Shown in pieces: positions 6,733-49,796 of a stretch of 64,000 bases of DNA. The translations under genes were made by a program, and so were the position numbers. This stretch comes from Patescibacteria group bacterium (lineage in GTDB: Bacteria; Patescibacteriota; Minisyncoccia; Phycocordibacterales; Phycocordibacteraceae), in assembly GCA_018969385.1 (NCBI GenBank), contig JAGWYL010000002.1, positions 289-64,288 of the forward strand, written 5' to 3'. Below the pieces are notes generated by a model that did not search any database, was not told the origin of the DNA, and saw only the letters and a list, made by a program, of their open reading frames with translations. Each line of letters opens with the position of its first letter. The first letter of the stretch is position 1.

Positions 6733-6806
6733 CTGACAGCGTACAGCTGACAGGCCATACGTCGAACATGAAACAAATCAAAGCTGTACGCTGCAAGCTG
6801 TAAGCT
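6732..6806. repeat. inverted-repeat pair of the short CAGCGTACAGCTG / CAGCTGTAAGCT motif family
   Basis: cagcgtacagct (6737-6748) and its exact reverse complement agctgtacgctg (6782-6793) flank a 33-nt spacer. Related copies at 38303-38333 and 41106-41138. Confidence 0.5.
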
Positions 6807-6812
6807 TCTCTC

Positions 6813-7502: not shown

Positions 7503-7623
7503 ACGGCCGAGGTTCTCCGACCCGCCACGCGCTCGATCTGTCCCCGCGAAAGAGGGTCCGATTCTAGTCTTTCGCATGAACAGCTCTTCGCGCGTGGCGG
7601 GTCTTGAAACGGATTCTAGTATT

Positions 7624-7660
7624 CCAAAAAAGAGAAGGCCGCCTTCATGGGGCGGCCTTT
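7624..7660 (-). terminator. intrinsic terminator for the minus-strand histidine phosphatase gene
   Basis: Plus strand reads aaaaaaga-aaggccgcc-ttcatgg-ggcggcctt; on the minus strand this is a hairpin followed by TCTCTTTTTT. Confidence 0.6.
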
Positions 7661-7681
7661 CGCACTGATAGGACTGGAAGA

Positions 7682-8338: not shown

Positions 8339-8471
8339 CGGAACACTCCATATGTCAGAGGGCGCGCCGCGCCCGTTCGTCCCTACGGCCCCAGCGGCTT
8401 TCGGTCTGATTTCAACATAGCACGAAAAATTGGTATTGTCAAAATAGGGCGGAAATGCTAGCGTTTGCCGC

Positions 8472-24655: not shown

Positions 24656-25915
24656 ATGGCAAAAGCCGCACGAACCAAAGCGAAGAGACGTCCGTCCGCA
24701 CGCAGCGCGAAGCCGGCTGCCCGGCGGAGCTCGCATAAGCCCGCTCCGAAGAAGTCGAAACGGCCGGTGAAAAAGACGAGAGCCGCCGCGAAGCCCAAGA
24801 AGGCGGCGCATCCCGCCGTGAAGCCTTCCGCGAAGAAGGCGCCGCGCGGCGGGGACCGCAACGCGCTCGCGGACGCGCTCATTGCGAAGGGGAAAGAGCG
24901 CGGCTACATCACCTATAACGAGATACTGAAGGAGTTCCCGACCATCGAGAACGACATCTCGTTCCTCGACACGCTCTACGAGCGTTTTTCCACGGCCGGC
25001 ATCGACATCCTCGAAGGCGGCATGCTCGAAGATAACGCCGACGAATACCTCGCGACCCGCAACATAAAGAGCCGCGAATCGTCCGGATACGATTCCATTC
25101 AGATCTATCTGCGCGAGATAGGCCAGTATCCGCTCCTCACCGCGGCGGAAGAGCGCGAGCTCGCACAGCGCATCGCGGCGGGCGACGACGAGGCGAGGAA
25201 CATCCTCGCGCGCTCGAACCTGCGCCTCGTGGTTTCCATAGCGAAGAAATACGTAGGCCGCTCTCCGGACCTCACGCTTCTCGACCTCATCCAGGAAGGG
25301 AACCTCGGCCTCTTCAAGGCGGTCGACAAGTTCGACTGGAAGAAGGGATACAAGTTTTCCACGTACGCGACGTGGTGGATACGCCAGGCCATCACCCGCG
25401 CGCTCGCGGACCAGTCCCGTACCATCCGCATCCCCGTGCACATGGTGGAGACCATCGCGAAGTACAAGCAGGTGTCCCGCCGCCTCGCGCAGGCCTTGGG
25501 CCGCGACCCGCAGCCCGAAGAGATAGCGGTGGAGATGGGCGTCGAGCCGGAGAAGATATACCAGATCGAGAAGATAAATCAGGACACGCTTTCGCTCGAG
25601 AATCCGGTCGGTTCGGACGACGACGAGAAGTCCACGCTCGGCGACTTCATCGCGGACGACAAGATTCCCTCGCCCGTGCAGGAATCCTCGGAGCGCATCC
25701 TCGGCGAACAGGTGCGCGACATCCTCGGCGACCTCTCGCCCAAGGAGCGCAAGATACTCGAGATGCGCCACGGGCTCCAAGACGGCGTCTACCACACGCT
25801 CGAAGAAGTGGGGAAGGAGTTCGGCGTGACTAGGGAGCGCATCCGGCAGATCGAAGCGAAGGCGCTCGAGAAGATACGCACGCACGACAAGTCCCGCCGG
25901 CTGAAGAGCTACTAG
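24656..25915 (+). CDS. rpoD: RNA polymerase sigma-70 factor, primary-like
   Basis: Lys/Ala-rich N-terminus; region 2 ([45 protein letters not shown]) and region 4 ([24 protein letters not shown]). Start moved to ATG at 24656. Confidence 0.9.
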
Positions 25916-25918
25916 AAC

Positions 25919-26005
25919 CCGTTTCAAAAACCGGCTCGGGGTGCACGGTTCGGAAGCGAACTCTCTTCAGGCTTCCGAACCGTGCACCCCGAGCCGGACG
26001 TTTTG
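25919..26005. repeat. palindromic MITE/REP-like element, copy E2, immediately 3' of rpoD and 5' of the hydrogenase-like cluster
   Basis: cgtttcaaaaaccggctcggggtgcacggttcggaagc - gaactctcttcag - gcttccgaaccgtgcaccccgagccgg - acgttttg; perfect 28-bp stem. Confidence 0.8.
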
Positions 26006-26062
26006 CACACGGTACGCCCTGGACATTCGCTTCGCGCAGGCATAGAGTACTCCGCATCCGTC

Positions 26063-26584
26063 ATGCTTTCGCTTCTCGCCAAGATAGTCGCGACCGGCTC
26101 GATTACCGAGCCGGTTTCGACATTCCCCGAACCGGAACTCGGGGAAACGGGAGAGAACCTGAAGGCGGCCATAGGAGCGCTCTACGGCGGCCGCTCGCTC
26201 CATATCCGGCATGTGGACGCCGGCTCGAACAACGGGGAAGAGTACGAGATGACGGCGCTCGGGAACGCCTTCTATGACGTCGAGCGCTTCGGGCTCTCAT
26301 TCGTGGCATCGCCGCGGCACGCGGACATCCTTACCGTTTCCGGTCCGGTGACGCGCAACATGGAACACGCGCTCCGTACCGCGTATGAACTCATGCCCGC
26401 GCCGCGCATCGTGGTCGCGGTGGGCGACGGCGCCGTGACGGGCGGCATCTGGAAAGGCTCGTACGCCGTCGTCGGCCCCGTGGACTTGGTGATACCGGTG
26501 GACGTGCGCATCCCGGGCGACCCGCCCGCGCCCGCCGACATCCTCGCGGGCCTTCTCGCCGCGGTGCGCAAGGGGCGCTCCTGA
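26063..26584 (+). CDS. NuoB/HycG-like small subunit homolog lacking all [4Fe-4S] cysteine ligands (Ehr-type)
   Basis: Conserved NuoB blocks FVASPRHADILTVSGPVT and IPVDVRIPG present. The Cys motifs CNGCE / GSCA / PGCPP read SNNGEE / GDGA / PGDPP. Start set at ATG 26063 (the track GTG start lies inside element E2). Confidence 0.8.
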   Translation: MLSLLAKIVATGSITEPVSTFPEPELGETGENLKAAIGALYGGRSLHIRHVDAGSNNGEEYEMTALGNAFYDVERFGLSFVASPRHADILTVSGPVTRNMEHALRTAYELMPAPRIVVAVGDGAVTGGIWKGSYAVVGPVDLVIPVDVRIPGDPPAPADILAGLLAAVRKGRS

Positions 26585-26594
26585 CGATTCGCGT

Positions 26595-28583
26595 ATGGCT
26601 CCCTCCGTTTTCGGACTGCTGTTCGTCGCTGCGCTCGTGCTGCCGCTTCTCGGGAGCGCCGCGGCGCTCCTTGCGCGCCGCGCGGGGTGGGGCAATGCGC
26701 TTTCCCAATACCTTTTCATGCTTTCGGGCGTCCTAGGACTCGCCGCGCTCGCCGGCTACTTCACGGCGCTTCACGCCGCATCCTCGGTCGTGCTTCTTAG
26801 TTCGCCCGTCCTCGCGTTTTCGGTGACGCCGCTTAGCGCGTTCTTCCTCCTCATCGTGTACCTCGGGACGTTCATCACGTCGCTCTACGCGCTCGGCTAT
26901 CTGCCGCTCTATGCGGACGCGTATTCGGTGCCGCTTACGAACGCGGTGTCCGGCGTATTCCTCTTCGCGCTCGCCGCGGTGCTTCTTTCGACGACGGTAT
27001 TCACCTTCCTCCTGTCCTGGGAACTCATGTCGCTTTCGGCATACTTCCTCGTCATCGCCGACCGGAGCCCCGAGTCGCTTTCCGCCGGCTTCCTGTACCT
27101 CGTGATGACGCACATCGGGTTCGCCTGCCTTTCCGCCGGCTTCCTGCTCCTTAGCGGAGGCCACGCGTTCATCTCGTTCGACGGCGTGCGCGAGGTGGCG
27201 CGGCAGCTGAATCCGGCCGCGCTCGCCGCAGCGTTCGCGCTCCTCTTCATAGGATTCGGCTCGAAGGCGGGTCTCGTGCCGCTCCATCAGTGGCTCCCGT
27301 ACGCGCATCCGCAAGCGCCGAGCCACAGCTCCGCACTCCTTTCCGGAACCATGCTCAAGGTCGCGCTCTACGGCTTCCTTCTCGCGCTCACGCTCTTTCC
27401 CGGCATACCGGCATCCTGGGCGTTTACGGTCGCGGCGGTCGGCCTCATCTCCGCCTTCTTCGGCGCTCTGTCCGCCGCCGTCGAGCATGACGCGAAGCGG
27501 CTCCTCGCGTGGAGCAGCGTCGAGAACATGGGGCTCATCTTTTCCGGCGTCGGCATAGCGCTCGTCCTCCACGGCCTTTCCATGCCGCTTTCGGGCGCGC
27601 TCGCCGCCGCGTTCGCGCTCTTCGTCGCGTTCCATGTCCTCAATCATTTCGCGTTCAAGACCGGACTCTTCCTCGCGACCGGCGCGATGGTCGCGAAGAC
27701 GCATACGCGCGACCTCGACCTCTACGGCGGGCTCGCGGGGAAGTGGCCGGCGTTTTCCGGCGTCTTCCTCGTGCTCGTCATCGCCGCCGCCGCGCTCCCG
27801 CCTTCGGGGACCTTCTTCGGCGAATGGCTCTACCTGCAATCGCTCGCTGCGGCGCTCCGCTTCTCGTCGCCGCTTCTCGTCGCTTCGGCCGCCGCGGCGC
27901 TCGGCCTTGCGGCGCTCGTCGGCGGCCTCGCGCTCTTCGCGTTCGTGAAGTTCTTCAGTGCCGCGTTCCTCGGCAGAGCGCGGAGCGAACATGCGGAAGC
28001 GGCGGAACCGATGCCCGTCCTGCTCCTCGTCCCGCCGCTCCTATGCGCCGCGTTCTCGGTCCTGCTCGGCCTGTTCGGCCTGCCCGTACTTTCCGCTGCG
28101 ACTGCGGGGTTCGGTTCACTCGTCCCCGTCACCACGGTCGTACCCGGCGCGTCGATGAGCGCCTGGTTCGTGTTCGCGCTTCTCGCCTTCGCGTCCGCTT
28201 TCGCGTTCATCGCTTATCGCGTCTTCGCCCGGAACCGGACCGTGCGCCGGACTGAAACCTGGGACTGCGGTACGCCGCTTACGCCGCGCATGGAGTACAC
28301 GGCGACCGGGTTCTCGGCGCCCATGCGCTTCTTCTTCCGCGGGCTGGTCATGGCGCAGAAGGAGATACTCGCGGAAGCGGTCGTGCCCGGGAATCCGTGG
28401 ATCGCGAACCGGCGCATCGAGTGGAGCATCGCTTCCGTCTGGGAGGCGTGGCTGTACCGGCGCATCGCTCGCGGCATCGTATCCGTCGCCGCGTTCGTGA
28501 AGCGGCTTCAGAACGGCGTCATCCAGCTCTACCTCTTATTCGTGCTCCTCGCGCTCATCATCGTCGTACTCGTCGCCCTATGA
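26595..28583 (+). CDS. NuoL/HyfB/MrpA-like antiporter-type membrane subunit
   Basis: 662-aa polytopic membrane protein with the complex-I antiporter-like fold (LPYAHPQAPSHSSALLSGTMLKVALYG). Confidence 0.85.
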   Translation: MAPSVFGLLFVAALVLPLLGSAAALLARRAGWGNALSQYLFMLSGVLGLAALAGYFTALHAASSVVLLSSPVLAFSVTPLSAFFLLIVYLGTFITSLYALGYLPLYADAYSVPLTNAVSGVFLFALAAVLLSTTVFTFLLSWELMSLSAYFLVIADRSPESLSAGFLYLVMTHIGFACLSAGFLLLSGGHAFISFDGVREVARQLNPAALAAAFALLFIGFGSKAGLVPLHQWLPYAHPQAPSHSSALLSGTMLKVALYGFLLALTLFPGIPASWAFTVAAVGLISAFFGALSAAVEHDAKRLLAWSSVENMGLIFSGVGIALVLHGLSMPLSGALAAAFALFVAFHVLNHFAFKTGLFLATGAMVAKTHTRDLDLYGGLAGKWPAFSGVFLVLVIAAAALPPSGTFFGEWLYLQSLAAALRFSSPLLVASAAAALGLAALVGGLALFAFVKFFSAAFLGRARSEHAEAAEPMPVLLLVPPLLCAAFSVLLGLFGLPVLSAATAGFGSLVPVTTVVPGASMSAWFVFALLAFASAFAFIAYRVFARNRTVRRTETWDCGTPLTPRMEYTATGFSAPMRFFFRGLVMAQKEILAEAVVPGNPWIANRRIEWSIASVWEAWLYRRIARGIVSVAAFVKRLQNGVIQLYLLFVLLALIIVVLVAL

Positions 28584-29527
28584 CCTTCTTCCTCGCCATC
28601 CTTGACGGGCTCATCGTCCTCCTTCTCGCGCCGCTTACGGTCGGCTTCGTCCGGCTCGCGAAAGCGCGTTTCCAGAACCGCCGCGGCGCGCCCGTCTACC
28701 TTCCGTACCTCACGCTCCTCTCTCTCATGCGCAAGGAGATGACCGTGACGAAGCACAGCTCATGGGTATTCGCCGCCGCGCCGTTTTTCGTACTCGCCTC
28801 CGCTATCGCGCTCGCGTTCATCGTTCCGACCGCCGCCGCGGGCGTTCTTCCCGATTTCGCGAGCAACCTGTTCCTCGTCGGCGGCATCGCGGCGTTCGGC
28901 TCCGTCTTCCTCGCCATGGGCGGCATGGACGCGGCGAGCACGTTCGGCAACATGGGCGCAAGCCGCGAGATGACGCTCGCGGCGTTCGTCGAGCCGGCGT
29001 TCTATATGGGATTCTCGGCGCTCGCGCTCGTCGGCGGGACGTGGAGCCTCGACGGCATCCTCCGGCATCTCGCGTCGCTCCCGTGGAGCGCGGGCGTTCC
29101 CGCCGCGAGCATCGCGCTCGTGGCGCTCGTGTTCGTCACGCTCGCGGAGAACGCGCGCTATCCGGTCGATAATCCGGCGACGCATCTCGAGCTCACGATG
29201 GTGCACGAAGCGATGCTGCTCGAATATTCCGGACCGTCGCTCGCGCTCCTCGAATACGCGTCGGCGGTGAAGCTCACGGTGATGCTCGGGCTCGTCGCGA
29301 GCCTCTCCCTGCCGTTCTTCCTCATACAGCCGCCGGTCACCGCGCTCGGCCTCGTGCTCGGCGTTCTCGCGCTCATCGCGAAACTCGCGCTCGCCGCGTT
29401 CGTGCTCGCGTTCATCGAGTCCACGTTCGTGAAGATGCGCTTCTACCGCATGCAGGAATACTTCTCGCTCGCGTTCATCGTCGCGCTCGCCGGACTCCTG
29501 CTCGCGCTCATAAGCATGACCCGCTGA
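28580..29527 (+). CDS. NuoH/HyfC/HycD-like membrane subunit
   Basis: ATGA overlap with the upstream stop; MTFFLAILDGL N-terminus and polytopic profile typical of formate hydrogenlyase subunit 4. Confidence 0.8.
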   Translation: MTFFLAILDGLIVLLLAPLTVGFVRLAKARFQNRRGAPVYLPYLTLLSLMRKEMTVTKHSSWVFAAAPFFVLASAIALAFIVPTAAAGVLPDFASNLFLVGGIAAFGSVFLAMGGMDAASTFGNMGASREMTLAAFVEPAFYMGFSALALVGGTWSLDGILRHLASLPWSAGVPAASIALVALVFVTLAENARYPVDNPATHLELTMVHEAMLLEYSGPSLALLEYASAVKLTVMLGLVASLSLPFFLIQPPVTALGLVLGVLALIAKLALAAFVLAFIESTFVKMRFYRMQEYFSLAFIVALAGLLLALISMTR

Positions 29528-29530
29528 CCT

Positions 29531-30172
29531 ATGACTCCCACCGTCCTATCCGCTTCCTTGCTCGGCGCCATGCTGGTCGCGTCTTTGCTCATGGAAAGCC
29601 GCATGCGCCTCACGTCCTTGGTCACGCTCTTCCGCGTGCAGTCGGCGTTCCTCGGTTTCTACGCGCTCTTGCTCGCGTATGCGGAAGGAGCGATACATCT
29701 TGCGGTCATCGCGCTCCTCATACTCGCCTTGAAGGCGTTCGTCATACCGGAATTCCTGCTCAGGGTCGCGCGCGCGAGCGGCGCGTCCGAGCGGCTCGAG
29801 GCGTACGTGCGCCCGACGACGCTCTCGTTCGCAGGCCTCCTCGTCGTCGGACTCGCGTTCGCGGCTACGAACCTGCTCCTGCCGGACGGCCACTACTTCG
29901 CCGCCGCCGTGTCCCTCTCGCTCGTGATGCTCGGGTTCTTGCTCCTCGTTTCCCGCAAGGACATGTTCGGGCAGGGAATCGGTTTCCTCGGCATGGAGAA
30001 CGGCATCTTCATATTCGGGCTCGCGCTCACGGGCGGCATGCCGCTTCTGGTGGAGCTCTCCGCGCTGTTCGACCTGCTCATCCTCTTCATCCTCGTCGCC
30101 GCGCTCGTGCGCCGCGCGCAGCACGAGCACTCCTCCGTGGGGACGGACCTCTTGCGGACGCTTACCGACTAA
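29531..30172 (+). CDS. HyfE-like small membrane subunit
   Basis: 213-aa polytopic protein in the position and size of hydrogenase-4 component E. Confidence 0.7.
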   Translation: MTPTVLSASLLGAMLVASLLMESRMRLTSLVTLFRVQSAFLGFYALLLAYAEGAIHLAVIALLILALKAFVIPEFLLRVARASGASERLEAYVRPTTLSFAGLLVVGLAFAATNLLLPDGHYFAAAVSLSLVMLGFLLLVSRKDMFGQGIGFLGMENGIFIFGLALTGGMPLLVELSALFDLLILFILVAALVRRAQHEHSSVGTDLLRTLTD

Positions 30173-30185
30173 TCGCGATTTCCGT

Positions 30186-31658
30186 ATGACGATACTCGCG
30201 CTCATCCTCCTCTCGATACTCTCCGGCGTCCTGCCGTTCTTCGCGCGGCGCTTCGAGACCGTTACGGCGCTCGCGCTTCTCGGCAGCTCCGGCGTCGCCG
30301 CGCTGTCCGCCGTCGTCGGCATGCCGGCGCTGCTCGGCGCCTCGGCGCTTTCGGGCGGCGGCCTCTGGTACGTCGATCCGTTCGGCGGCCTCCTGGTGCT
30401 CCTCATCGGATTCATGCAGTGGACCGCGACGATGGCGAGCGTGCCGTACCTCGGCGAGGAAGTCCGGAAGGGCATCACGTCTCTTGCGCGCACGAAGCGC
30501 TATTTCGCGCTTCTCGCGCTCTTCGTCCTTTCGATGCTCGTCACCGTCGTCTCGAACAACCTCGGCTTCATGTGGGTGGCGCTCGAAGCGACGACGCTCA
30601 CGACGACGCTCCTCGTCGCGTTCTACGACCGCAAGGGTTCGGTGGAAGCGGCCTGGAAGTATCTCATCCTGTGTTCGACCGGCATCTCCCTCGGTCTCAT
30701 CGGCCTCCTCATGACCTACTACGCCGCATCCTCCGTGATGGCCGGCGGCGCGACGCTCGACTGGACGACGCTTGCCGCTTCTGCGCACGCGTTCCCGGCG
30801 AGCATCATGCGCATCGCGTTCGCGTTCATCCTCATAGGCTTCGGCACGAAAGCCGGCCTCGTGCCGATGCATGCCTGGCTCCCCGACGCGCACTCGAGCG
30901 CGCCGTCGCCCGTGTCGGGCCTGCTTTCGGGCGTGCTCCTCAACGCCGCGCTCTTCGCCGTGCTCCGCTACAAGGCGCTCGCCGACCTTTCCGCCGGGGG
31001 AAGCGGATGGACGAACGGCCTCCTCCTCGGGTTCGGCGTGCTTACCGTGGCGGTACCGGCGGCGTTCATCATCTTCCAGGCGGACTACAAGCGGCTCCTC
31101 GCGTACTCGAGCGTCGAGCACATGGGACTCATCACGTTCTCGACCGGTCTCGGCGTCGCGGGCCCTCTGATAGCGGTCATCCACATCATCGGCCACGCGC
31201 TCACGAAATCGATGCTCTTCATCGGTGCGGGGAACATCCTGCATCGCTATGAGAGCACGAAGTTCGCGAATGTCGGCGCGGTCATGCGGGTGCTTCCGTA
31301 CACCGGCGCGTTCTTCCTCGCGGGCATACTGCTCCTCCTTGCCGCGCCGCTCTCTCCGCTCTTCGTGAGCGAGTACTTCATAGTGTCCGCCGCCGTCGCG
31401 ACGCATCCGCTCTACACGCTCATCATCCTCTTCGCGCTCTCCGTCATCTTTGCCGGGTTCCTGCATCTTTTCGCGCCGCTCCTCTTCACCGCGCCTTCGC
31501 GCGGCGCCGAAGCGCTCGCGGAAAAGACGGGAGAGCGCTGGAATATCTCCCACACCGCCATGCTGCTCCACATCGTGCTCCTGCTCGCGTTCGGCGCGTT
31601 CCTCCTCACGGGCGCGGCGTACCCGCTCCTTGAGCATGTCGCCGCTTCCATAACCTGA
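30186..31658 (+). CDS. NuoN/NuoM/HyfF-like antiporter-type membrane subunit
   Basis: 490 aa; LVPMHAWLPDAHSSAPSPVSGLLSGVLLNAALF matches the NuoM/N conserved core. Confidence 0.85.
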   Translation: MTILALILLSILSGVLPFFARRFETVTALALLGSSGVAALSAVVGMPALLGASALSGGGLWYVDPFGGLLVLLIGFMQWTATMASVPYLGEEVRKGITSLARTKRYFALLALFVLSMLVTVVSNNLGFMWVALEATTLTTTLLVAFYDRKGSVEAAWKYLILCSTGISLGLIGLLMTYYAASSVMAGGATLDWTTLAASAHAFPASIMRIAFAFILIGFGTKAGLVPMHAWLPDAHSSAPSPVSGLLSGVLLNAALFAVLRYKALADLSAGGSGWTNGLLLGFGVLTVAVPAAFIIFQADYKRLLAYSSVEHMGLITFSTGLGVAGPLIAVIHIIGHALTKSMLFIGAGNILHRYESTKFANVGAVMRVLPYTGAFFLAGILLLLAAPLSPLFVSEYFIVSAAVATHPLYTLIILFALSVIFAGFLHLFAPLLFTAPSRGAEALAEKTGERWNISHTAMLLHIVLLLAFGAFLLTGAAYPLLEHVAASIT

Positions 31659-31664
31659 TCCGCC

Positions 31665-33206
31665 ATGACCATCGACTCGCTGCGTTCTTCGCTCCGGCTT
31701 CCCGCGCTTACGCTCTTCGGCGCGACCGTCGTCCCCTCGGCCGAACTTCCGGCCTACGCCGACGCCTGCGCGGCGCACGGCGCGCCGCTCGTGTTCATGT
31801 ACGGGACGGACGAGCGCGCGGCGGGAATCGGATTCGCGGTGCATGCGGTCTTCGCGCTTCCCGGAAGCGGCTTCGTGACGCTCCGCAGCGTGCTTCCCGC
31901 CGAGAAACCATCCTATCCTTCGCTCACGCGCACCATAATGGCGGCGCACTGGTTCGAGCGGCTCATGCAGGACCAGTTCGGCATCATCGCCGAGGGACAT
32001 CCGGACCCGCGCCGTCTCATCCATCACGAGAACGTGCCGGAAGGAACGTATCCGCTCCGGAAGGATTTCGCCTGGGATGCGAAGCTTCCGCACGCGGACG
32101 TCCCGTATCCCATGCACCGGGTCGAGGGGCGCGGCGTCTACGAGATTCCGGTCGGACCGATACACGCGGGAGTCATCGAGCCCGGCCACTTCCGTTTCAA
32201 CGTACGCGGCGAGCGCATCCTCTCGCTCGAAGGGAAGCTCTTCTTCACGCATAAGGGGGTCGAGAAGCTCGTCGAAGGGAAGACGCCCGCCGAGGCGCTC
32301 CCGTTCATTGAGCGTATCTCGGGCGACATGCCGGTAGCGCATACGCTCGCGTTCGCCGAAGCGGTCGAACGGGCAAGCTGCATCAGTGTGCCGAAGCGCG
32401 CGCGCATGCTCCGCGTCGTCTGGAGCGAGCTCGAGCGCATCACCATGCATCTTTTCGATATGGGAAATATGGGCGGGAACGGGACCGGGTTCACCTTCAT
32501 GGCTGCGCAAGGATTCCGCATGGTGGAGGAGATGCGGCGGATGCACGCGTCGCTTGCCGGACATCGGTACCTCCGCGGCGCGGTGACGCCGGGAGGCGCG
32601 CACGACCTTTCGCAGGAGGCCGCGGCAGGCATGCTTAGGACGCTCGCGCGTATCGAGCGGGACATGAAGGACGTGCTCAAGATCGCGTACGGGACGGACG
32701 GTCTCATGGAGCGGTTCGAGACGACCGGCGTCCTGTCGCGCGCCGCCGCGCTGGCCTACGGCGCGCGCGGCATAGCCGCGCGCGCATCCGGCGTCGACAC
32801 GGATGCTAGGCGCGATTACCCCTACGCGGCCTACGACGAGCTCGCGGTGAACGTCGTCACCGAGAAAGCGGGCGACGTGGCCGCGCGCTTCAAGGTCCGC
32901 GCGCGCGAATTCGAAGAATCGCTCCGGCTCGTCCGCGCCGCGCTCGCCGCGCTCCCGGAAGGGAAGGCGCAAGCCCCGGCCATCGCCAAGGAAGGCGCCG
33001 CGCTTGCCGCCGTCGAAAGCTGGCGCGGCACGATATACGACTGGGTGCGCATCGGCGCGGACGGGCGCATCGACCGCGCTGCGATTTCGGATCCCTCGTT
33101 CTCGAACTGGCCGCTATTCGGCGAGATAGGTCCCGGCAATATCGTCCCTGATTTCCCGCTCTGCAACAAGAGCCTCAACCTCTCTTACTCAGGCACGGAC
33201 TTGTAA
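31665..33206 (+). CDS. NuoC-NuoD fused / HycE-like large subunit homolog lacking NiFe-binding cysteines (Ehr-type)
   Basis: N-terminal NuoC-like AAHWFERLMQDQFGIIAEGHPDPRRLI. L1 motif region reads RISGDMPVAH (canonical RxCGxCxxxH) and the C-terminal L2 region reads SLNLSYSGTDL (canonical DPCxxCxxR). Confidence 0.85.
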   Translation: MTIDSLRSSLRLPALTLFGATVVPSAELPAYADACAAHGAPLVFMYGTDERAAGIGFAVHAVFALPGSGFVTLRSVLPAEKPSYPSLTRTIMAAHWFERLMQDQFGIIAEGHPDPRRLIHHENVPEGTYPLRKDFAWDAKLPHADVPYPMHRVEGRGVYEIPVGPIHAGVIEPGHFRFNVRGERILSLEGKLFFTHKGVEKLVEGKTPAEALPFIERISGDMPVAHTLAFAEAVERASCISVPKRARMLRVVWSELERITMHLFDMGNMGGNGTGFTFMAAQGFRMVEEMRRMHASLAGHRYLRGAVTPGGAHDLSQEAAAGMLRTLARIERDMKDVLKIAYGTDGLMERFETTGVLSRAAALAYGARGIAARASGVDTDARRDYPYAAYDELAVNVVTEKAGDVAARFKVRAREFEESLRLVRAALAALPEGKAQAPAIAKEGAALAAVESWRGTIYDWVRIGADGRIDRAAISDPSFSNWPLFGEIGPGNIVPDFPLCNKSLNLSYSGTDL

Positions 33207-33298
33207 GATTCCGGAACTCGCCGCGGGATGCGCGGTTCGGAAGCCTGAAGAGAGTTCGCTTCCGAACCGCGCATCCCTGGCCGAAGGCTTGAAATACG
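33207..33298. repeat. palindromic MITE/REP-like element, copy E3, immediately 3' of the hydrogenase-like cluster, inverted relative to E2
   Basis: Stem gggatgcgcggttcggaagc / gcttccgaaccgcgcatccc; loop ctgaagagagttc is the reverse complement of the E2 loop. Confidence 0.8.
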
Positions 33299-33312
33299 CT
33301 TCCGTCTGCTTA

Positions 33313-33356
33313 TAAAAAACTCGTGCCTCCTCCCGAACATTCGGAGAGGAGGCACG
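33313..33356 (-). terminator. intrinsic terminator for the minus-strand gene 33375..34058
   Basis: 11-bp stem cgtgcctcctc / gaggaggcacg with loop ccgaacattcgg, preceded on plus by aaaaaa (U-tract on the minus strand). Confidence 0.6.
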
Positions 33357-33374
33357 TATGCTTTGAGGGGTCGC

Positions 33375-34058
33375 TCAAGCGGCTTTCGCCTTCTCGAACG
33401 CCCCGCCGACGTACTGTTTGATCTCGCTTTTCTTCTTGGCCAGCGACCAGGAAGTCGCGAGGCGCAACGGGACGTGCTGTCCGGTATTCGGGTCGTAGTA
33501 GTGCTTCATCACCGTCTGTTCGTTGTTCACGAACCTGACGACGATGTCGCGCTCGCCGACCCGGCGATGCCGCATGCAGATGGTGTCCACGTCGGGCTGC
33601 GGCGGGATGATGTAATACGGAGGTACGAGGTACCCGGCCTTCTTGAGTTCCTTCACCATGGAGTGATGGACCCCGAGTACGGCCAGGATTTCCTCTTCGC
33701 TCATGCATGCGGCACAAGCGTTCAACGCTACATCAAGCCCGTTCCCTAGCGTGACGGGAATCTCTCCCGCCGCCAGGCATTCGAGTATGCGCTTCCAGAG
33801 CAGCACGTAGTGGCCCCACGCCTTGTAGAGTGCGGGAATGGGCTCTAGGTCCCACTCGCCGCGGTCCTCCGCAAGCGGGTGCGGTATCGGTTCGCAGGCG
33901 GCGCCCAGAAACCTAAAAGTATTCTGAGGAAAGGCTTCCTCAAGGATAGGTCTAAGTTCCTGGTCGTAGAATGTCCGGCGGCCGGAGTTGCGCGGTCCGC
34001 CGACGGACAGTACTACCGCCCCGTTCAAAAGATCATTTCCAAACGTCATTCGTCTCAT
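33375..34058 (-). CDS. hypothetical protein
   Basis: Start moved to the internal ATG (MRRMTF) preceded by a purine-rich RBS (gagggtgaagg); followed by a terminator; no motif recognised. Confidence 0.5.
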   Translation of the reverse strand: MRRMTFGNDLLNGAVVLSVGGPRNSGRRTFYDQELRPILEEAFPQNTFRFLGAACEPIPHPLAEDRGEWDLEPIPALYKAWGHYVLLWKRILECLAAGEIPVTLGNGLDVALNACAACMSEEEILAVLGVHHSMVKELKKAGYLVPPYYIIPPQPDVDTICMRHRRVGERDIVVRFVNNEQTVMKHYYDPNTGQHVPLRLATSWSLAKKKSEIKQYVGGAFEKAKAA

Positions 34059-34162
34059 TACCTTCACCCTCACTTGATTGACGTACTCGGGAGTATGCCT
34101 CAAATGCGGCCAGAAATCAACGGTTTCGGCCTGGATATCCCGTGCGGTACACTCATAGGGAC

Positions 34163-36991
34163 ATGCCCACCACTCCCGCATTCGAAGAAGCGTACGCGAA
34201 GCTCAACGCCAAGCAGAAGGAGGCCGTCGATACGGTCGAAGGGCCGGTGATGGTGCTCGCGGGTCCCGGCACGGGGAAGACGAGCATCCTCACGGTCCGC
34301 GTCGCGAACATACTCGCGAAGACGGGCGCGAAGCCGGACGAGCTCCTCGTGCTCACGTTCACCGATTCCGCCGCGCGCACGGTCGCCGCGCGGCTCGCGG
34401 GACTCATCGGCGAAGAGGTCGCGCGCAAGGTGAACGTGTACACGTTCCATAGCTTCGCGAACGAGGTCATCCGCACGCATCCTGAAGCGTTCCCGGAACA
34501 TGTCGACCGGCGCCAGATGAACGAGCTCGAACAGGTGCTCGTGTGGCGCGCCGTGCTCGAGAAGCACGGGGACCCGCTCCTCTCGACGCCGAAGTCGCCG
34601 TTCCACTACCTCAAGGACCTGAAGCAGCTTGAGGACGAGATGACGCGCGAATGCTTCTCGACGGACGCGTACCGCGCGTGGCTCGATGCGGAAGAGGAAC
34701 GCATCAAGGAGGACCCCGCTTCCCGGTACGCGAAAGGCGGGAAGGGCGGTGCCGCGGGAGAACTCAATCCGAAGGGTCGTGAGAGGCTCGCGCGGCTCGC
34801 GAAGGGACGTGCGGCCGCGAAGCTCATCGACGCGTACCGCGCGGAAAAGGACGCGCGCGGGCTCTACGGCTACACCGATGTCCTTCGCGTCGTCGTCGAC
34901 GCCATCGCTTCCGACGAGGCCTTGCGCGCGGAACTGCAGGAACAGTACCAGTACGTGCTCGCCGACGAGCACCAGGATGCGAACGCGCTGCAGCATGCGC
35001 TCGTCGACGCGCTCGCGTTCGACGACCATCCGAACCTCTTCATCGTGGGTGACGAGAAGCAGGCGATATTCGGTTTTCAGGGCGCGGACGTCTCGCACTT
35101 CGGGTCGTTCCTTGAGCGCTATCCGCGCACCGCGCGGATAGCGCTTTCCGAGAATTACCGTTCGTACCAGGAAGTGCTCGACGTGGCCGAAGGGCTCCTC
35201 GCGGAATTGCCGAGCGCAGTCGGCGCGCATGCGCCGCTTACGGCTACGCGCGGCGCGGGCGGCCGCATCCGCCTCCTCGCCGCACCCGACCCGCTCGCCG
35301 AGCGCGACCAGGTGGCGACGCTGGTGGAAGAGGCTATAGCCGAAGGCGTGCCGCCGCACGAGCTTGCGGTCATCACGCTCAAGAATAAGACCGCGGACCT
35401 TTTCGCATTGCACCTACGCGCGCGCGGGATTCCCGTGCTTCGCGCAGGCGATATCGACCTCGACGGGAGGCCCCTCGTACGCACGCTCTTCGCGCTCATG
35501 CGCGCGACGGGCGACCCGACCGACGCGAGCGCGCTTCGCGAAGCGCTCCTTGCGCCGTGGTGGAACGTGCCGCTCGCCGAGCGCGCCCGGTTCTTGCGCA
35601 CCACGAATGACCGGGAACTGGAAACGGTCCTTGAGGAAGCGTTCCCGGCTGTCGCGGGAATCATCGCCGCCTTGCGCGAGGAAGCGCTCGCCGTGCCGCC
35701 CGCGAACTTCTTCTCGCTCCTCCTCGCGCAGTCGGGAGCGCGCGACTACCTGCTTTCGCATGCCGATGCGCTTACTGAAGACGTACCTCTCGTACGGAAA
35801 GTCATGCAGTACGTGGAAGAGCTCGTGCGCCGCGCGCCGAGCGCGACGTTCGCGGAAGTGGTCGCCGAGTTCGAGCAGGCGCGCGAGCATGAGGTCGGCG
35901 CGCTAACCACGTCGCGCACGCGCGCGGAAGGCGCGGTAACGGTCATTACCGCGCACAAGGCGAAGGGCATGGAATTCGCGCGCGTGTTCGTGACCGCGCT
36001 TACGAAGAGCGAGTGGGAAGGGCGGGGGAAAAGCGCGCTCGTGCCGTCGCCCTTCGACGGCAAGCGCGAGCACGACGAGCTCATCCGCCTGTTCTATGTG
36101 GCGACGACGCGCGCGAAAGACGCGCTCGTGCTCTCCTATGCCGCGGAGAACGGCGACGGGAAAGAGCAGCCGCCGTTCTCTCTCATGCCGGCCGGGCTCG
36201 AGACCCTCTCTGTCCCGTCCGATCCGCTTCCGAAGCTCTTCACGGTCGTCGAGCCGACCGCGCTCCTACGCGAACTCACGGAGCGTTACCTCGTGCATGA
36301 CGGCCTTTCGCCCTCGGCGTACAACGAATATCTCGAGAGTCCGCCCGCCTTCTTCGCGAAGCGCGTGCTGCGCCTTTCCGAGCCTGAGACGCGCGCCATC
36401 GCGGCGGGGAATGCGGTGCACGCGGCGCTCGCGCGATTCCTCAAGACGCGGGATGCGGACGAGGCGCACGCCGAACTCGCCCGCGCGTTCCGCCAATCGC
36501 TCCTGCCGCGCGGCGATACGTTCGATGCGCTCGTCCGTCACGGGTCGGCGCTCCTTCGCGCGGCGCTTGCCGACCCGTTCTTCGCAGGGGAGGCGCTCGC
36601 TATCGAGGAAACGTTCAAGGCGAAACGCGTCGTACGCGGCACGGAGGTGGCGCTCAAGGGGAAGATAGACGCGCTCATGCGGACGGATGAAGGCCTCTGC
36701 ATCGTGGATTTCAAGACGTCGAGCTCGATAGAGAAGGAAGAGAAGGAGCGGTTCGCGCGGCAGATAGCCTTCTATGACCTCTTGCTGCGCGCGAACGGAC
36801 ACGAACCGGTCTCCGGGCGCATCGTGCGCCTTTCCGAGGAAGGCATCGAAGAGCACCGCGTGCTGCTCGCGAAGGAGATGCGCACGGAGCTCGAAGCGAC
36901 GCTCGATGCCGTGCTCGAAGAGCTCCTTACGGGCCGGTGGCGCGCGGGCGCTCCTTCCGACTACGACGCGCTCTTTCGCCTCTTGGCGTGA
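34163..36991 (+). CDS. UvrD/PcrA-family helicase with C-terminal PD-(D/E)xK (RecB/Cas4-like) nuclease domain
   Basis: Walker A VLAGPGTGKTS, helicase motifs YQYVLADEHQDANALQ and VTVITAHKAKGMEF; C-terminal GKIDAL...CIVDFKTS...QIAFYDLL nuclease motifs. Confidence 0.85.
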   Translation: MPTTPAFEEAYAKLNAKQKEAVDTVEGPVMVLAGPGTGKTSILTVRVANILAKTGAKPDELLVLTFTDSAARTVAARLAGLIGEEVARKVNVYTFHSFANEVIRTHPEAFPEHVDRRQMNELEQVLVWRAVLEKHGDPLLSTPKSPFHYLKDLKQLEDEMTRECFSTDAYRAWLDAEEERIKEDPASRYAKGGKGGAAGELNPKGRERLARLAKGRAAAKLIDAYRAEKDARGLYGYTDVLRVVVDAIASDEALRAELQEQYQYVLADEHQDANALQHALVDALAFDDHPNLFIVGDEKQAIFGFQGADVSHFGSFLERYPRTARIALSENYRSYQEVLDVAEGLLAELPSAVGAHAPLTATRGAGGRIRLLAAPDPLAERDQVATLVEEAIAEGVPPHELAVITLKNKTADLFALHLRARGIPVLRAGDIDLDGRPLVRTLFALMRATGDPTDASALREALLAPWWNVPLAERARFLRTTNDRELETVLEEAFPAVAGIIAALREEALAVPPANFFSLLLAQSGARDYLLSHADALTEDVPLVRKVMQYVEELVRRAPSATFAEVVAEFEQAREHEVGALTTSRTRAEGAVTVITAHKAKGMEFARVFVTALTKSEWEGRGKSALVPSPFDGKREHDELIRLFYVATTRAKDALVLSYAAENGDGKEQPPFSLMPAGLETLSVPSDPLPKLFTVVEPTALLRELTERYLVHDGLSPSAYNEYLESPPAFFAKRVLRLSEPETRAIAAGNAVHAALARFLKTRDADEAHAELARAFRQSLLPRGDTFDALVRHGSALLRAALADPFFAGEALAIEETFKAKRVVRGTEVALKGKIDALMRTDEGLCIVDFKTSSSIEKEEKERFARQIAFYDLLLRANGHEPVSGRIVRLSEEGIEEHRVLLAKEMRTELEATLDAVLEELLTGRWRAGAPSDYDALFRLLA

Positions 36992-47987: not shown

Positions 47988-49796
47988 TCACTCGCTCGCC
48001 GTGAGCATGTACCGCTTGATGTCTTCGAAGGTGCCGCCGACTTTCTTGCCGGGGTTGAGGATGTTCTCGGGATCGAACGCCTTCTTCACTTCTTCGAACA
48101 GCGCGACCATCTCCGCGCCGAAGAGCATGGGGAGGTACGGCGTGCGGATGATGCCGTCATTATGCTCGCCGGTCGTCGTGCCGCCGTACTTGATGACGAG
48201 CTCGTAGACTTTCGGCGCGAGTTCGAGGATGGTCTCGCGGGAAATGGGCTTCGAGAGGTCCATGAGCGGGATGATGTGGAAGTTCCCGTTGCCGATGTGG
48301 CCGGCGATGGTGTAGATGAAGCGGTCCTGATACTGCGCAAGGAGCGCGGATAGTTCCGGCAGGAATTTCGGGTATGACGCAGGCGGCACGACGAAGTCGT
48401 CGATGAAGGGGGAGGCGTAGTAGCCGTGGAGCGACTTGCGCAGGAGCGCGAAGCTCTCGCGCCGGACTATCCAATATTTCTCGCTCTCGGCCTCATTTTT
48501 CTCTATCTTCGTCTCGAGATGGAACTCGGCGAGCGCGTCCTGCGCCGCCTTCGCCTTCGCGTCCGCTTCTTCGATGGTGTTCTCCGCGAACTCGGCCATG
48601 AGGATGAGCTTCGGCACGCCGCCTACGAGCACCGTTTCCACTTCCGGCAAGAACTCGATGCCGAGGTGCACGGCCTTCGCGAGCCCCATCTGCTTGAGGA
48701 GGTCGAAGAGGAACCGCGTCGCGAACGTGAAGGTCTTGTCGTCGTAGCTTTCGAACGATTCGGGATTGAGCGGCAGCACCTTCGCGACGATGTCCGGCAA
48801 CGGCGCGAGGTCATGGAGGAAGATGACGAGCATGGCGCGGTGCGGCTTGTCCTTCACGAGCCCGAGCCGCGCGCGCGTCCACAGCGCGAGCGTGCCCTGG
48901 CTGCCGCAGATGAGCTTCGCGAGGTTCACGCCGCCGTCCGGCGTGCGCACGTTCCAGAGCGCGTAGCCCGCGGAGTTCTTCGAAACCTCCGGCTTCTTTT
49001 CGGCGATAAGGTCGGCGTTCTTCGTGATGACCTCATCGACCGTGCGATAGATGGAACCTTCGAGCGTCTCGAGTTTCTTCTTCTCGTCGAGCTCGGCGCT
49101 CGTGAGCGCTTTGAATGTCGCCTTCGAGCCGTCCGAAAGCACGACCTCCATCTCCTCTATATAGTCTTCCGTCTTGCCGTACTCGAGCGTGCGCTCGCCG
49201 CCGGAATTATTCGCGACGATGCCGCCCATGGCGCAGAGCTCGCGGCTTGCGGGGTAGGAGGGGAGTATGAGGTCCTGCTTGAGGGTCTCCTTCTCGAAGT
49301 CGCGGTAGAAGACGCCGGGTTCCGTGATGGCGTATCCGGCGACATGCGCGCTTTGCAGTCCGTTCGCGTTCAAAGCGGAACTCGTTTCAATACCGGCTCG
49401 CGGTGCATGGTTCGGAAGAAGCCCATTCAAGTCTTCCGAACCATGCACTCCCTCGCCGGAAGTTTTGAAATGAGTTCCGTCGGCAGCGCCGACCTCGCCC
49501 ATGTGATTCATATATCTGGTGAATGAGATGACGACGCCGTCCGTGAGCGGGCCGCCGGACATGTCCGTGCCGGCCGAGCGCGCGGCGAGCGCTACCTGCG
49601 CGCCGCCCTCCCGGGCGGCGCGCACCACCCTTACCGCCGCCGCCACGTCATCCGCATCCTTCGGAAATACCACCAGCTTCGGCATCCGCATGAAAAGGGA
49701 CGTGTCCCTGCTCGCCTTCGCGAGGTCCTCCGGCGCGTCCGACACGTCGCCTTTCACTACGTCTGTCAATCTCGATTTCAGTTCTTGTACATCCAT
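47988..49796 (-). CDS. FAD-linked oxidase (GlcD / D-lactate dehydrogenase family) carrying an in-frame 34-codon palindromic-element insertion
   Basis: FAD-binding PCMH region (FPKDADDVAAAVRVV...GTDMSGG) and C-terminal FAD-oxidase domain (HIGNGNFHI). Continuous 602-aa ORF spans element E4. Confidence 0.85.
   Translation of the reverse strand: MDVQELKSRLTDVVKGDVSDAPEDLAKASRDTSLFMRMPKLVVFPKDADDVAAAVRVVRAAREGGAQVALAARSAGTDMSGGPLTDGVVISFTRYMNHMGEVGAADGTHFKTSGEGVHGSEDLNGLLPNHAPRAGIETSSALNANGLQSAHVAGYAITEPGVFYRDFEKETLKQDLILPSYPASRELCAMGGIVANNSGGERTLEYGKTEDYIEEMEVVLSDGSKATFKALTSAELDEKKKLETLEGSIYRTVDEVITKNADLIAEKKPEVSKNSAGYALWNVRTPDGGVNLAKLICGSQGTLALWTRARLGLVKDKPHRAMLVIFLHDLAPLPDIVAKVLPLNPESFESYDDKTFTFATRFLFDLLKQMGLAKAVHLGIEFLPEVETVLVGGVPKLILMAEFAENTIEEADAKAKAAQDALAEFHLETKIEKNEAESEKYWIVRRESFALLRKSLHGYYASPFIDDFVVPPASYPKFLPELSALLAQYQDRFIYTIAGHIGNGNFHIIPLMDLSKPISRETILELAPKVYELVIKYGGTTTGEHNDGIIRTPYLPMLFGAEMVALFEEVKKAFDPENILNPGKKVGGTFEDIKRYMLTASE
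49377..49478. repeat. palindromic MITE/REP-like element, copy E4, inserted in frame within the FAD-linked oxidase CDS
   Basis: gaactcgtttcaataccggctcgcggtgcatggttcggaaga...tcttccgaaccatgcactccctcgccggaagttttgaaatgagttc. 102 nt; the minus strand reads GTHFKTSGEGVHGSEDLNGLLPNHAPRAGIETSS with no stop. Confidence 0.8.

Follow-up and report, generated by a model that had tools for sequence, protein, structure and literature searches.

Energy-converting (or Ech-) hydrogenase-related complexes, reportedly named Ehr by Coppi in 2005 and by Marreiros and colleagues in 2013, form a branch of the group-4-hydrogenase/complex-I superfamily. Ehr of the Geobacter/Nitrospira type have six subunit types, a large subunit without both CxxC NiFe motifs and no HycF-like ferredoxin subunit. 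The function of Ehr is given as unknown (PMC10284858; bioRxiv 10.1101/765248). For CPR bacteria, the main text of Jaffe et al. 2020 (BMC Biol, PMC7304191) describes a monophyletic, CPR-specific Ehr large-subunit clade without metal-binding cysteines that 'likely cannot interact with H2'. That main text covers the large subunit alone and contains nothing on small-subunit Fe-S loss, membrane-residue conservation, or an ATP synthase or carbonic anhydrase neighbourhood. By annotation only, a matching six-gene order is also found in Mycobacterium tuberculosis rv0082-rv0087 (hycD/P/Q/E), tabulated as oxidoreductase, oxidoreductase, HycD, HycP, HycQ and HycE and considered a putative [NiFe]-hydrogenase (PMC6901956).

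The locus described here lies in a 64-kb stretch of DNA (the window) and shares these features of Geobacter/Nitrospira-type Ehr. A sequence-only reading had placed a six-gene hydrogenase/complex-I-like module at positions 26063-33206 of the forward strand; the module is present there, and the Pfam and NCBIfam families agree. Its six co-directional ORFs form a tightly packed operon (intergenic gaps of -4 to +13 bp) and are translationally coupled, with the NuoH-like gene start overlapping the preceding stop by 4 bp. A NuoB/HycG-like small subunit of 173 aa (26063..26584; PF01058, E = 2.9e-26) is followed by a HyfB/NuoL/MrpA-like antiporter-type subunit of 662 aa (26595..28583; PF00361; NCBIfam 'hydrogenase 4 subunit B', E = 2e-138), a HycD/NuoH-like subunit of 315 aa (28580..29527; PF00146 (NuoH), E = 6.6e-34; HycD 7z0s_D, E = 1.4e-29) and a HyfE-like small membrane subunit of 213 aa (29531..30172; NCBIfam 'hydrogenase 4 membrane subunit', E = 3.4e-13). 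Next come a HyfF/NuoN/MrpD-like antiporter-type subunit of 490 aa (30186..31658; PF00361; NCBIfam 'hydrogenase 4 subunit F', E = 8e-112) and a fused NuoC-NuoD, HycE-like large subunit of 513 aa (31665..33206; PF00329, PF00346 and the N-terminal part of PF00374). This order, S-L-H-E-N-CD with the small subunit first, differs from the L-H-E-N-CD-S of Nitrospira-/Terriglobia-type Ehr. Since the NCBIfam scores of the operon subunits all fall under the equivalog cut-offs, these are divergent relatives, not orthologues. The setting also matches the earlier description of a cluster between rpoD and an unrelated convergent gene: rpoD (sigma-70 domains) lies upstream, and a convergent P-loop-like gene, then UvrD, downstream. 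A weak candidate promoter (26020..26048, forward strand) lies in the 147 bp that separate rpoD from the small-subunit gene; it is the only sigma-70-like match in 25700-34300, a count no higher than in shuffled sequence.

The S, H and CD subunits match Escherichia coli formate hydrogenlyase (7Z0S) and MBH (6CFW) best in sequence and fold, and the membrane subunits resemble those of Hyf. Unlike group-4 [NiFe]-hydrogenases, however, the operon lacks all eight metal-ligating cysteines, a HycF-like subunit and an FdhF partner. In alignments of the large subunit to HycE (7z0s_E, 6e-64) and MbhL, RISGDMPVAH falls on RvCGiCgfAH and NLSYSGTD on DpCysCtd, confirming the proposed L1 and L2 replacements (RISGDMPVAH, SLNLSYSGTDL); the four NiFe ligand positions are occupied by S219, M222, S507 and G510. 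The former L2 motif is followed at once by the C-terminus, and the quinone-ligand Tyr of NuoD is replaced by Gly. Across 120 homologues with identity down to 55%, the motifs ERxSGDMxxxH and SLNLSYSGTDL hardly vary, and the pattern is thus not a product of chance or artefact. An AF2 model of the large subunit (pLDDT 79, pTM 0.83) has HycE as its top fold match (TM 0.82); confidence is low at residues 147-196 and 483-513, exactly the conserved loops, so the model supports no structural statement on the former active-site chamber.

The small subunit has undergone a parallel loss. The four cluster cysteines of MbhJ (6cfw_J, 3e-29) and HycG (7z0s_G, 3e-26) align by phmmer to N56, E59, G123 and D153, and the 173-aa protein has no cysteine at all, making the loss of ligands independent of alignment register. 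The claimed disappearance of its Cys motifs is thus borne out, and the earlier worry that cysteines might be present but displaced is settled: the translations contain every motif string quoted in the sequence-only reading, and profile alignments give the same register. Small subunits of clade 3a vary little or not at all at E59, D122, G123 and D153, and across many independent 50%-identity clusters the former cluster positions read NEGD, SEGD, DAAD, DVDD, DEDS, DDDS and others. The same reading had singled out complete metal-site loss as unusual. Both sites are indeed lost, but large subunits without the cysteines are already reported for a CPR Ehr clade (Jaffe et al. 2020, PMC7304191), and, going by that main text, the large subunit studied here very probably belongs to the same clade.

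Phylogenetically, the large subunit groups apart from true group-4 hydrogenases, the nearest of which (Sporomusa, Desulforamulus, Chloroflexota) show 41-48% identity to it, and it shares the derived residues S219, D221, D476, S507 and G510 with Nitrospira-type Ehr large subunits. These residues uphold the proposed Ehr-type assignment, but the operon is not a typical Ehr: it is a further-reduced variant, because Nitrospira-type Ehr retains the [4Fe-4S] ligands of the small subunit (all four cysteines, in GSCNACEME, GDCA and PGCPP, also in the Terriglobia type), whereas CPR-type clades have lost them. On the reading we prefer, the operon encodes a cofactor-free member of the Ehr branch. It falls in a Kaiserbacteria-like sub-clade of clade 3a; its large subunit is 100% identical to a protein from a Patescibacteria MAG, and its relatives come from Kaiserbacteria, Uhrbacteria and Moranbacteria. 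The host itself is a tiny, groundwater-type Patescibacteria (CPR) bacterium. The most conserved of the six proteins are the two soluble subunits (small subunit, mean identity 64% and 36% invariant columns; large subunit, 58% and 30%), while the membrane subunits show mean identities of 34-52% and 6-21% invariant columns, lowest in the HyfE-like subunit (34% mean identity). The family is under strong purifying selection.

The membrane arm is intact, with two antiporter-type subunits, a NuoH-type and a HyfE-type subunit. In the HyfB-like subunit, E143, K224, H238, K255, K301, E310, K355 and E410 are invariant across true hydrogenases, Nitrospira-type Ehr and clade 3a, and the HyfF-like subunit has invariant E134, K158, K222, H229, K302, E311, K341 and E396. 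Within clade 3a the NuoH-like subunit keeps R129, E130, E138, E190, D197, H202, E204, H209, E210 and E215, its conserved acidic residues aligning to the HycD stretch EmgklPfDlaeaEqEl. K68, E156 and E175 are conserved in the HyfE-like subunit, the Uhrbacteria orthologue of which has a weak PF00420 match. No charged residue that true hydrogenases keep invariant in their membrane subunits varies in clade 3a. We found no literature description of this full retention, of the small-subunit cluster being lost in the CPR-type clade while kept in Nitrospira-type Ehr, of a ferredoxin-type subunit missing from all 50 related loci, or of two 'dead' soluble subunits being the most conserved of six.

Could such a complex still be driven by redox chemistry, through a dissociable partner encoded elsewhere or a cofactor on non-Cys ligands at the remodelled sites, such as an Asp/Glu/His-ligated metal or a flavin? 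Acidic residues, Ser or Asn recur non-randomly at the former cluster positions, where they could make up a mononuclear metal site; the former NiFe site has conserved D221, D476 and H226; and formate dehydrogenase partners have been hypothesised for other Ehr (PMC6349859; PMC7894505). Against this, intact copies of the six-gene unit are found in genomes of CPR, Acidobacteriota and Chloroflexota, between unrelated flanks and with no redox partner, and no Fe-S, flavin or molybdopterin gene adjoins the 50 CPR-type loci or the Acidobacteriota and Chloroflexota copies. The search at this locus spanned the 64-kb window, in no frame of which a CxxCxxCxxxC motif occurs, though the rest of the genome could still encode an input partner. 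ORFs with this ferredoxin-type motif are found at 15 of 16 true hydrogenase loci, at 0/19 Nitrospira-type Ehr loci and at 0/50 CPR-type loci. The claim that no HycF/NuoI-like input subunit lies nearby thus extends from the window to 50 related loci. To our knowledge, a single carboxylate-ligated metal serves as an electron relay nowhere in the superfamily, and quinones and respiratory chains are generally missing from CPR genomes; the quinone-ligand Tyr is missing as well. Redox driving consequently seems improbable, and the label 'redox-blind' given earlier to the complex is as well supported as sequence allows (no Cys ligands, no ferredoxin-type ORF, Tyr replaced by Gly). A role outside transport, as a membrane scaffold, sensor, regulator or decaying hydrogenase relic, is equally doubtful. 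The loss of all catalytic ligands gives the look of a pseudo-enzyme, and no Ehr has a demonstrated function (PMC10284858; bioRxiv 10.1101/765248). However, the module has spread intact to other phyla, and for scaffolding alone there would be no need to keep all the conserved Lys/Glu of both antiporter modules plus the NuoH-like acidic residues. More than 100 homologues have intact ORFs, the replacement motifs are near-invariant and the membrane-subunit residues invariant, which excludes a decaying relic.

Another candidate role comes from the genomic neighbourhood. DabAB and NDH-1MS with CupA have reportedly been described as energy-coupled carbonic anhydrases (by Desmarais and colleagues in 2019 and Schuller and colleagues in 2020, respectively), in which antiporter modules of complex-I type are combined with a carbonic anhydrase-like protein; NDH-1MS is redox-driven. 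By analogy, an ion gradient could make CO2 hydration (or HCO3- dehydration) vectorial, if the complex withdrew or provided the proton of a CsoSCA-like beta-carbonic anhydrase acting as its partner. A CsoSCA-like protein of ~345 aa (PF20686 at 7e-8; PDB 2fgy at 1.5e-9), a different type from DabA (PF10070) or CupA, is encoded co-directionally beside the cluster in 9/37 complete clade-3a loci (10 with a partial locus). Seven copies lie upstream of the cluster and three downstream, 45-434 bp away. In this protein C44-x-D46-x-R48, H104 and C114 are invariant and fall on pCaDGRl and yHfS...hsGC of CsoSCA, stretches that we take to hold the Zn ligands and catalytic dyad. In a survey centred on this carbonic anhydrase, ~10 of 58 metagenome loci carried an Ehr cluster, in varying relative order, and family members elsewhere adjoin a DabA plus PF00361 cluster (in a Thiodiazotropha genome) and SulP-family transporter genes. 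Yet tblastn found no homologue in the 64-kb window, and the gene is missing from the vicinity of the cluster in some three quarters of the clade-3a loci, among them all those of the Kaiserbacteria-like sub-clade. It also lies beside ATP synthase operons without any Ehr, and the link may thus be to ATP synthase or pH homeostasis instead. We also know of no evident need for a carbon-concentrating mechanism in CPR bacteria. Coupling to carbonic anhydrase is accordingly unlikely, if slightly less so than the two preceding alternatives.

The explanation we prefer, at a probability of about 0.5, is that of a redox-independent, ion-gradient-linked translocator. An ion-translocating role is supported by the invariant charged residues in all four membrane subunits; of the earlier suggestion of an 'ion-translocating or scaffold' module, we retain the first half as a putative activity, whereas a mere scaffold is unlikely given that conservation among the six is strongest in the two soluble subunits. 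The analogy we favour, one of function and not of family membership, is with Mrp-type Na+/H+ antiporters, which are redox-independent and whose MrpA/MrpD-type (PF00361) subunits share the conserved Lys/Glu pattern. In place of MrpB/E/F/G-type subunits, none of which Pfam or NCBIfam detected in the operon, there are a NuoH-like subunit and a NuoB/NuoCD cap. That absence counts against translocation, as the Na+ path proposed for Mrp and MBH runs along these subunits. A plain antiporter also has no obvious need for a highly conserved soluble cap, and we know of none in Mrp antiporters.

As a translocator, the complex would need no redox chemistry to move H+, and perhaps Na+ as well; it would be either a secondary cation/proton exchanger or a conformational machine driven by an ion gradient. 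The chamber of the former active site, now with conserved carboxylates (D221 and D476 of the large subunit; E59, D122 and D153 of the small subunit), may act together with the conserved large-subunit stretch VGPIHAGVIEPGHFRF, presumably the β1-β2 loop region of complex I structures, and the NuoH-like acidic stretch as a protonation- or ion-sensing coupling site replacing the catalytic site. ATP synthase genes lie within 3 kb of 15/37 complete clade-3a loci, with the Ehr cluster directly 3' of the F-type ATP synthase operon; none do so at 3b, Nitrospira or hydrogenase loci, and the window has no ATP synthase operon. Most c-subunits of the adjoining ATP synthases look H+-type, and an obligatory Na+ cycle is therefore not indicated. 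In fermentative CPR cells, for which we know of no respiratory chain, the complex would most likely act side by side with the F1Fo-ATPase, setting or converting the ion-motive force and cytoplasmic pH.

Judged by its sequence, the complex encoded by the six genes at 26063-33206 (+) is a complex-I-type membrane assembly that is intact and under selection, with no Cys ligands for Ni-Fe or Fe-S, no quinone-ligand Tyr and no electron-input subunit encoded nearby. On these grounds the redox-independent interpretation put forward in the sequence-only reading holds overall, with ion translocation as the part that we infer. The genes are co-directional and tightly spaced: neighbours are 3-13 bp apart, except for one pair that overlaps by 4 bp. 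Pfam and NCBIfam searches return the six subunits in the proposed order: a NuoB-family small subunit (PF01058, 2.9e-26), a HyfB/NuoL-like subunit (PF00361; NCBIfam 'hydrogenase 4 subunit B', 2e-138), a NuoH/HycD-like subunit (PF00146), a HyfE-like subunit (NCBIfam match, 3e-13), a HyfF/NuoN-like subunit (PF00361; NCBIfam 'hydrogenase 4 subunit F', 8e-112) and, at 31665-33206, a fused NuoC-NuoD large subunit (PF00329, PF00346 and the start of PF00374). No score reaches its NCBIfam equivalog cut-off, which marks the six proteins as divergent relatives. The closest solved structures are HycE, HycG and HycD of E. coli formate hydrogenlyase and the P. furiosus MBH. In agreement with the suggested NuoC- and NuoD-like folds, the large subunit as modelled by AF2 (pLDDT 79, pTM 0.83) has HycE as its top fold match (TM 0.82). 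Residues 147-196 and 483-513, its two most sequence-conserved segments, have pLDDT values below 50. The first is the VGPIHAGVIEPGHFRF region and the second, at the C terminus, the former L2 motif; the low values may reflect a need for the small and NuoH-like subunits in folding.

Metal ligands are missing from both soluble subunits, which confirms the sequence-only observation in full. In phmmer alignments against MbhJ and HycG, the four [4Fe-4S] Cys columns are occupied by N56, E59, G123 and D153 of the small subunit, and none of its 173 residues is a Cys (the six proteins together contain 7 in 2,366 residues). A small subunit wholly without Cys rules out an alignment-register error, and with the phmmer alignments in agreement, a mistaken by-eye register was rejected. 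In the large subunit, HycE RvCGiCgfAH aligns with RISGDMPVAH and HycE DpCysCtd with NLSYSGTD, which bears out the register of the L1 and L2 motifs read by eye (RISGDMPVAH and NLSYSGTDL); the four NiFe Cys ligands of group 4 [NiFe]-hydrogenases are thus lacking. The small subunit also lacks the cluster N2 ligands of complex I NuoB. Yeast NUCM RldYvs aligns with RisGdm of the large subunit, placing Gly in the column of the quinone-ligand Tyr of NuoD (the RLDY Tyr, Y87 in T. thermophilus Nqo4). One large-subunit Cys, C500 (PLCNKS), lies just upstream of the former L2 motif and is invariant in a 30-sequence alignment and in 119/120 homologues; its column holds Ile in HycE and Thr in a Chloroflexota copy.

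The surroundings of the cluster likewise offer no redox partner. No CxxCxxCxxxC motif occurs in any frame of the 64-kb window, ferredoxin-type ORFs are found in 0/50 loci of the two CPR-type Ehr clades (3a, which includes the window, and 3b), and neither a HycF/EchF-type 2x[4Fe-4S] subunit or domain nor a NuoE/F/G/I electron-input module was found in the window or in related loci (50 of them for the former). The reported absence of a nearby HycF/NuoI-like subunit therefore extends to these relatives, and a ferredoxin-type or other redox partner nearby was rejected as a candidate. Among 27 scanned window proteins, a part of the ORFs of the window, there was no Hyp-family match. The genes rpoC, dnaG and rpoD lie 5' of the cluster; 3' of it, a convergent gene at 33375-34181 (-) precedes a UvrD/PD-(D/E)XK helicase, so the placement between rpoD and a convergent gene is correct. 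The convergent gene belongs to a small family, found only in close relatives, that has no Pfam match. Its P-loop-like motif, GPRxSG[KR]T, is degraded to GRRT in the window copy. It was rejected as a hidden Cys-rich partner, as none of its seven Cys is conserved. Elsewhere, the window encodes a P-type cation ATPase (55331-57730, -), an FAD-linked oxidase with FAD_binding_4 and FAD-oxidase_C domains (47988-49796, -), a PEP-utilising enzyme of the PPDK/PEP-synthase type (8472-10538, +) and a Glu/Leu/Phe/Val dehydrogenase (2205-3395, +). With the exception of the FAD-linked oxidase, which lies ~15 kb from the cluster, these genes give no hint of a redox partner.

The same six-subunit set (NuoL-, NuoH-, HyfE-, NuoN- and NuoB-like proteins plus the large subunit) recurs in more than 80 loci. 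The window large subunit matches a protein of a 'Patescibacteria group bacterium' MAG at 100% identity and has 55-73% identical relatives in Kaiserbacteria, Uhrbacteria, Moranbacteria and further CPR lineages. Comparison of 80 genome loci and five others, with ORFs of the 70% GC Acidobacteriota loci called using a GC3 filter, yielded four groups. True group-4 hydrogenases (Chloroflexota, Sporomusa, Desulforamulus, Planctomycetota) have the large subunit and then the small subunit after the four membrane subunits (L-H-E-N-CD-S), keep all eight Cys, and carry a ferredoxin-type ORF or domain in 15/16 loci. The Nitrospira/Terriglobia Ehr share this gene order and have lost the NiFe Cys; the four small-subunit Cys are kept in all 19 proteins wherever the sequence is complete, and a ferredoxin subunit occurs in 0/19 loci. 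Clade 3a comprises most CPR loci and three long Acidobacteriota contigs; the small-subunit gene comes first (S-L-H-E-N-CD), and the ligand positions read [T/N/S], E, G, D. In clade 3b, from Staskawicz- and Magasanikbacteria, they read D, C, D, D, and a Chloroflexota genome with a small-subunit-first six-gene unit has D, A, A, D. More broadly, about 35 of the best 150 small-subunit cluster representatives (50% identity) lack at least three of the four Cys, the replacements being mainly Asp, Glu, Ser or Asn. In the large subunits, S219, D221, D476, S507 and G510 are derived residues common to all Ehr groups, and a neighbour-joining tree sets all Cys-less clades apart from hydrogenases, without resolving the deep branching or deciding between one and two Fe-S losses. 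Both results support the assignment of the cluster to Ehr. The graded series offers a clean evolutionary course of cofactor loss, from hydrogenase (NiFe and three clusters) through Nitrospira-type Ehr (one) to CPR-type Ehr (none).

Two variants were seen among the homologues. P0294 (269 aa; cluster members P0418 and P0419) is a small-subunit homologue in which all four Cys are gone (D, V, D, S). Its JGI name, 'small subunit/ferredoxin', suggests a fused ferredoxin domain, which would point to a different intermediate state of cofactor loss. In Moranbacteria-type loci (L024, L027-L029, L031, L033-L036, L038 and L042, at ~6600-8400 in each), the NuoH-like and HyfE-like subunits are fused into one ~530-aa ORF.

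Conservation argues against a decaying hydrogenase relic. The Cys-less L1/L2 pattern is kept in 120 large-subunit homologues, in which ERxSGDMxxxH, SLNLSYSGTDL and VGPIHAG[IV]IEPGHFRF are near-invariant. In clade 3a, the two soluble subunits are the best conserved of the six, with mean identities of 64% (small; 36% invariant columns) and 58% (large; 30%), against 34-52% (6-21%) for the membrane subunits. The near-invariant replacement motifs and this subunit conservation exclude a relic. Charged membrane-subunit residues that are invariant in true hydrogenases are all invariant in clade 3a too: E143, K224, H238, K255, K301, E310, K355 and E410 in the HyfB-like subunit; E134, K158, K222, H229, K302, E311, K341 and E396 in the HyfF-like subunit; E130, E138, E190, D197, H202, E204, H209, E210 and E215 in the NuoH-like subunit; and K68, E156 and E175 in the HyfE-like subunit.

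Two kinds of neighbouring gene recur in clade 3a. The ATP synthase genes atpG/D/C lie at most 3 kb upstream in 15/37 complete, non-redundant loci, and none were found within 3 kb at 3b, Nitrospira or hydrogenase loci. A ~345-aa CsoSCA-like beta-carbonic anhydrase (CA; PF20686 7e-8, PDB 2fgy 1.5e-9) is co-directional beside the cluster, upstream or downstream, in nine of the 37 (10 with a partial locus), and its invariant C-x-D-x-R, H and C align with the corresponding CsoSCA stretches. In a search from the CA side, ~10 of 58 metagenome loci had an Ehr cluster, 13 an atp operon and 3 a SulP transporter. Neither atp genes nor the CA were found in the 64-kb window, which retains only the Ehr-x-UvrD synteny that it shares with Uhrbacteria. 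The c-subunits near Ehr or CA are mostly of the H+ type (AFAEAIAIY), and one from Moranbacteria near Ehr (L031:13772-13993) is Na+-type-like (ITESTGIY). In some CPR genomes the CA sits directly beside F-type ATP synthase operons where there is no Ehr cluster (L086:7888-11684; L087:9001-16082; L091, L099, L105, L128, L143 and L144), in one case in the order atp - CA - CA - SulP. In Candidatus Thiodiazotropha (L089:9001-19062), it is convergent with four PF00361 antiporter-type genes and a 1105-aa DabA.

The small-subunit-first, fully Cys-less module also reaches beyond CPR: it lies on long contigs from large Chloroflexota (L148:10001-17536, SHYO01000004.1) and Acidobacteriota (L026, L030, L037) genomes. 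The Acidobacteriota copies are flanked by genes for peptidases, an ABC ATPase, Ku and a methyltransferase; the Chloroflexota copy lies between two opposite-strand genes, radical-SAM upstream and DUF362 downstream. These unrelated flanks point to a self-contained module of six genes, whose horizontal transfer as a unit is implied by the long non-CPR contigs.

A monophyletic CPR clade within Ehr is on record from Jaffe et al. (2020; PMC7304191): its large subunits lack metal-binding Cys and 'likely cannot interact with H2'. The function of Ehr complexes from other phyla is given as unknown in the literature. Ehr as a kind and the Cys-less CPR large subunit are thus already known. The literature search, with Marreiros et al. 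(2013) outside its scope, found no statement on the small subunit, membrane-subunit residues or gene neighbourhood of the CPR clade, and nothing relevant linking CPR Ehr with carbonic anhydrase, ATP synthase or Fe-S loss. Apparently undescribed so far are the total lack of redox cofactors, the stepwise loss, the pattern of conservation and the neighbourhood of ATP synthase and CA genes.

Set against known systems, the window complex resembles Ehr in its NuoL-, NuoH-, HyfE- and NuoN-like membrane subunits, its NuoB-like small subunit and its large subunit, which is without the L1 and L2 CxxC NiFe motifs and groups with Ehr rather than with true hydrogenases. Nitrospira-type Ehr, however, keeps the four proximal [4Fe-4S] Cys where the window has N, E, G, D. 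Group 4 [NiFe]-hydrogenases have a proximal [4Fe-4S] cluster and a HycF/EchF-type subunit, whereas the window cluster has neither, and the N2 ligands, quinone-ligand Tyr and NuoE/F/G/I module of respiratory complex I are all missing. Like Mrp antiporters, the complex has MrpA/MrpD-type subunits (PF00361 twice) and conserved membrane Lys/Glu. Unlike them, it lacks MrpB, C, E, F and G, having only the HyfE-like subunit (weak PF00420 match in one orthologue), and includes NuoH, NuoB and NuoCD instead. DAB and NDH-1MS encode a carbonic anhydrase-like subunit with the antiporter module; the window has none, but 9-10 of ~40 related loci have the CA alongside.

The favoured reading, to which we give roughly even odds, is that the complex acts as a redox-free ion translocator, either by secondary exchange or as a conformational machine linked to an ion gradient, together with the F1Fo-ATPase. 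H+, and perhaps another cation too, would be moved across the membrane without redox chemistry, the F1Fo-ATPase would work alongside in fermentative CPR cells, and conserved carboxylates in the former active-site chamber would form a coupling or gating site. The strong conservation of the cap suggests that something still happens there. This is also the main weakness of the favoured reading, as a plain Mrp-like antiporter would not need a conserved cap. A cryptic redox function seems improbable, and a non-transport role equally so.

Coupling of the complex to the CsoSCA-like CA, by analogy with DAB or NDH-1MS, is the most interesting alternative. The recurrent, though minority, adjacency of the CA to Ehr clusters speaks for it, but the CA is missing from the window and its whole sub-clade and is linked independently to atp operons, which leaves such coupling unlikely, if somewhat less so than the two preceding options. 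In its boldest form, and with similarly long odds, cofactor-free CPR-type Ehr would join DabAB and NDH-1MS/CupA as a third class of energy-coupled carbonic anhydrase machine, with an evolutionary origin of its own, or, more generally, would be a complex-I-type engine whose redox chamber has turned into a carboxylate-lined proton/ion chamber. If true, ion-motive force from the neighbouring F1Fo-ATPase would be coupled to CO2/HCO3-/H+ handling in cells without a respiratory chain.

Complex I, membrane-bound hydrogenases and Mrp antiporters have one ion-pumping architecture in common, and how chemistry in the soluble cap drives distant pump modules is still debated. CPR-type Ehr is a natural version without a redox cofactor, in which the cap, conserved loop residues of the large and NuoH-type subunits and the two antiporter-type modules are under strong selection. 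It poses directly the question of what else can drive or gate a complex-I-type machine, and represents a stripped-down system for coupling studies that the features described here make experimentally approachable. The family occurs widely in CPR bacteria, a group with a poorly understood energy metabolism, and the ATP synthase operon next to Ehr in many lineages suggests a role in managing the membrane potential and pH of these minimal cells.
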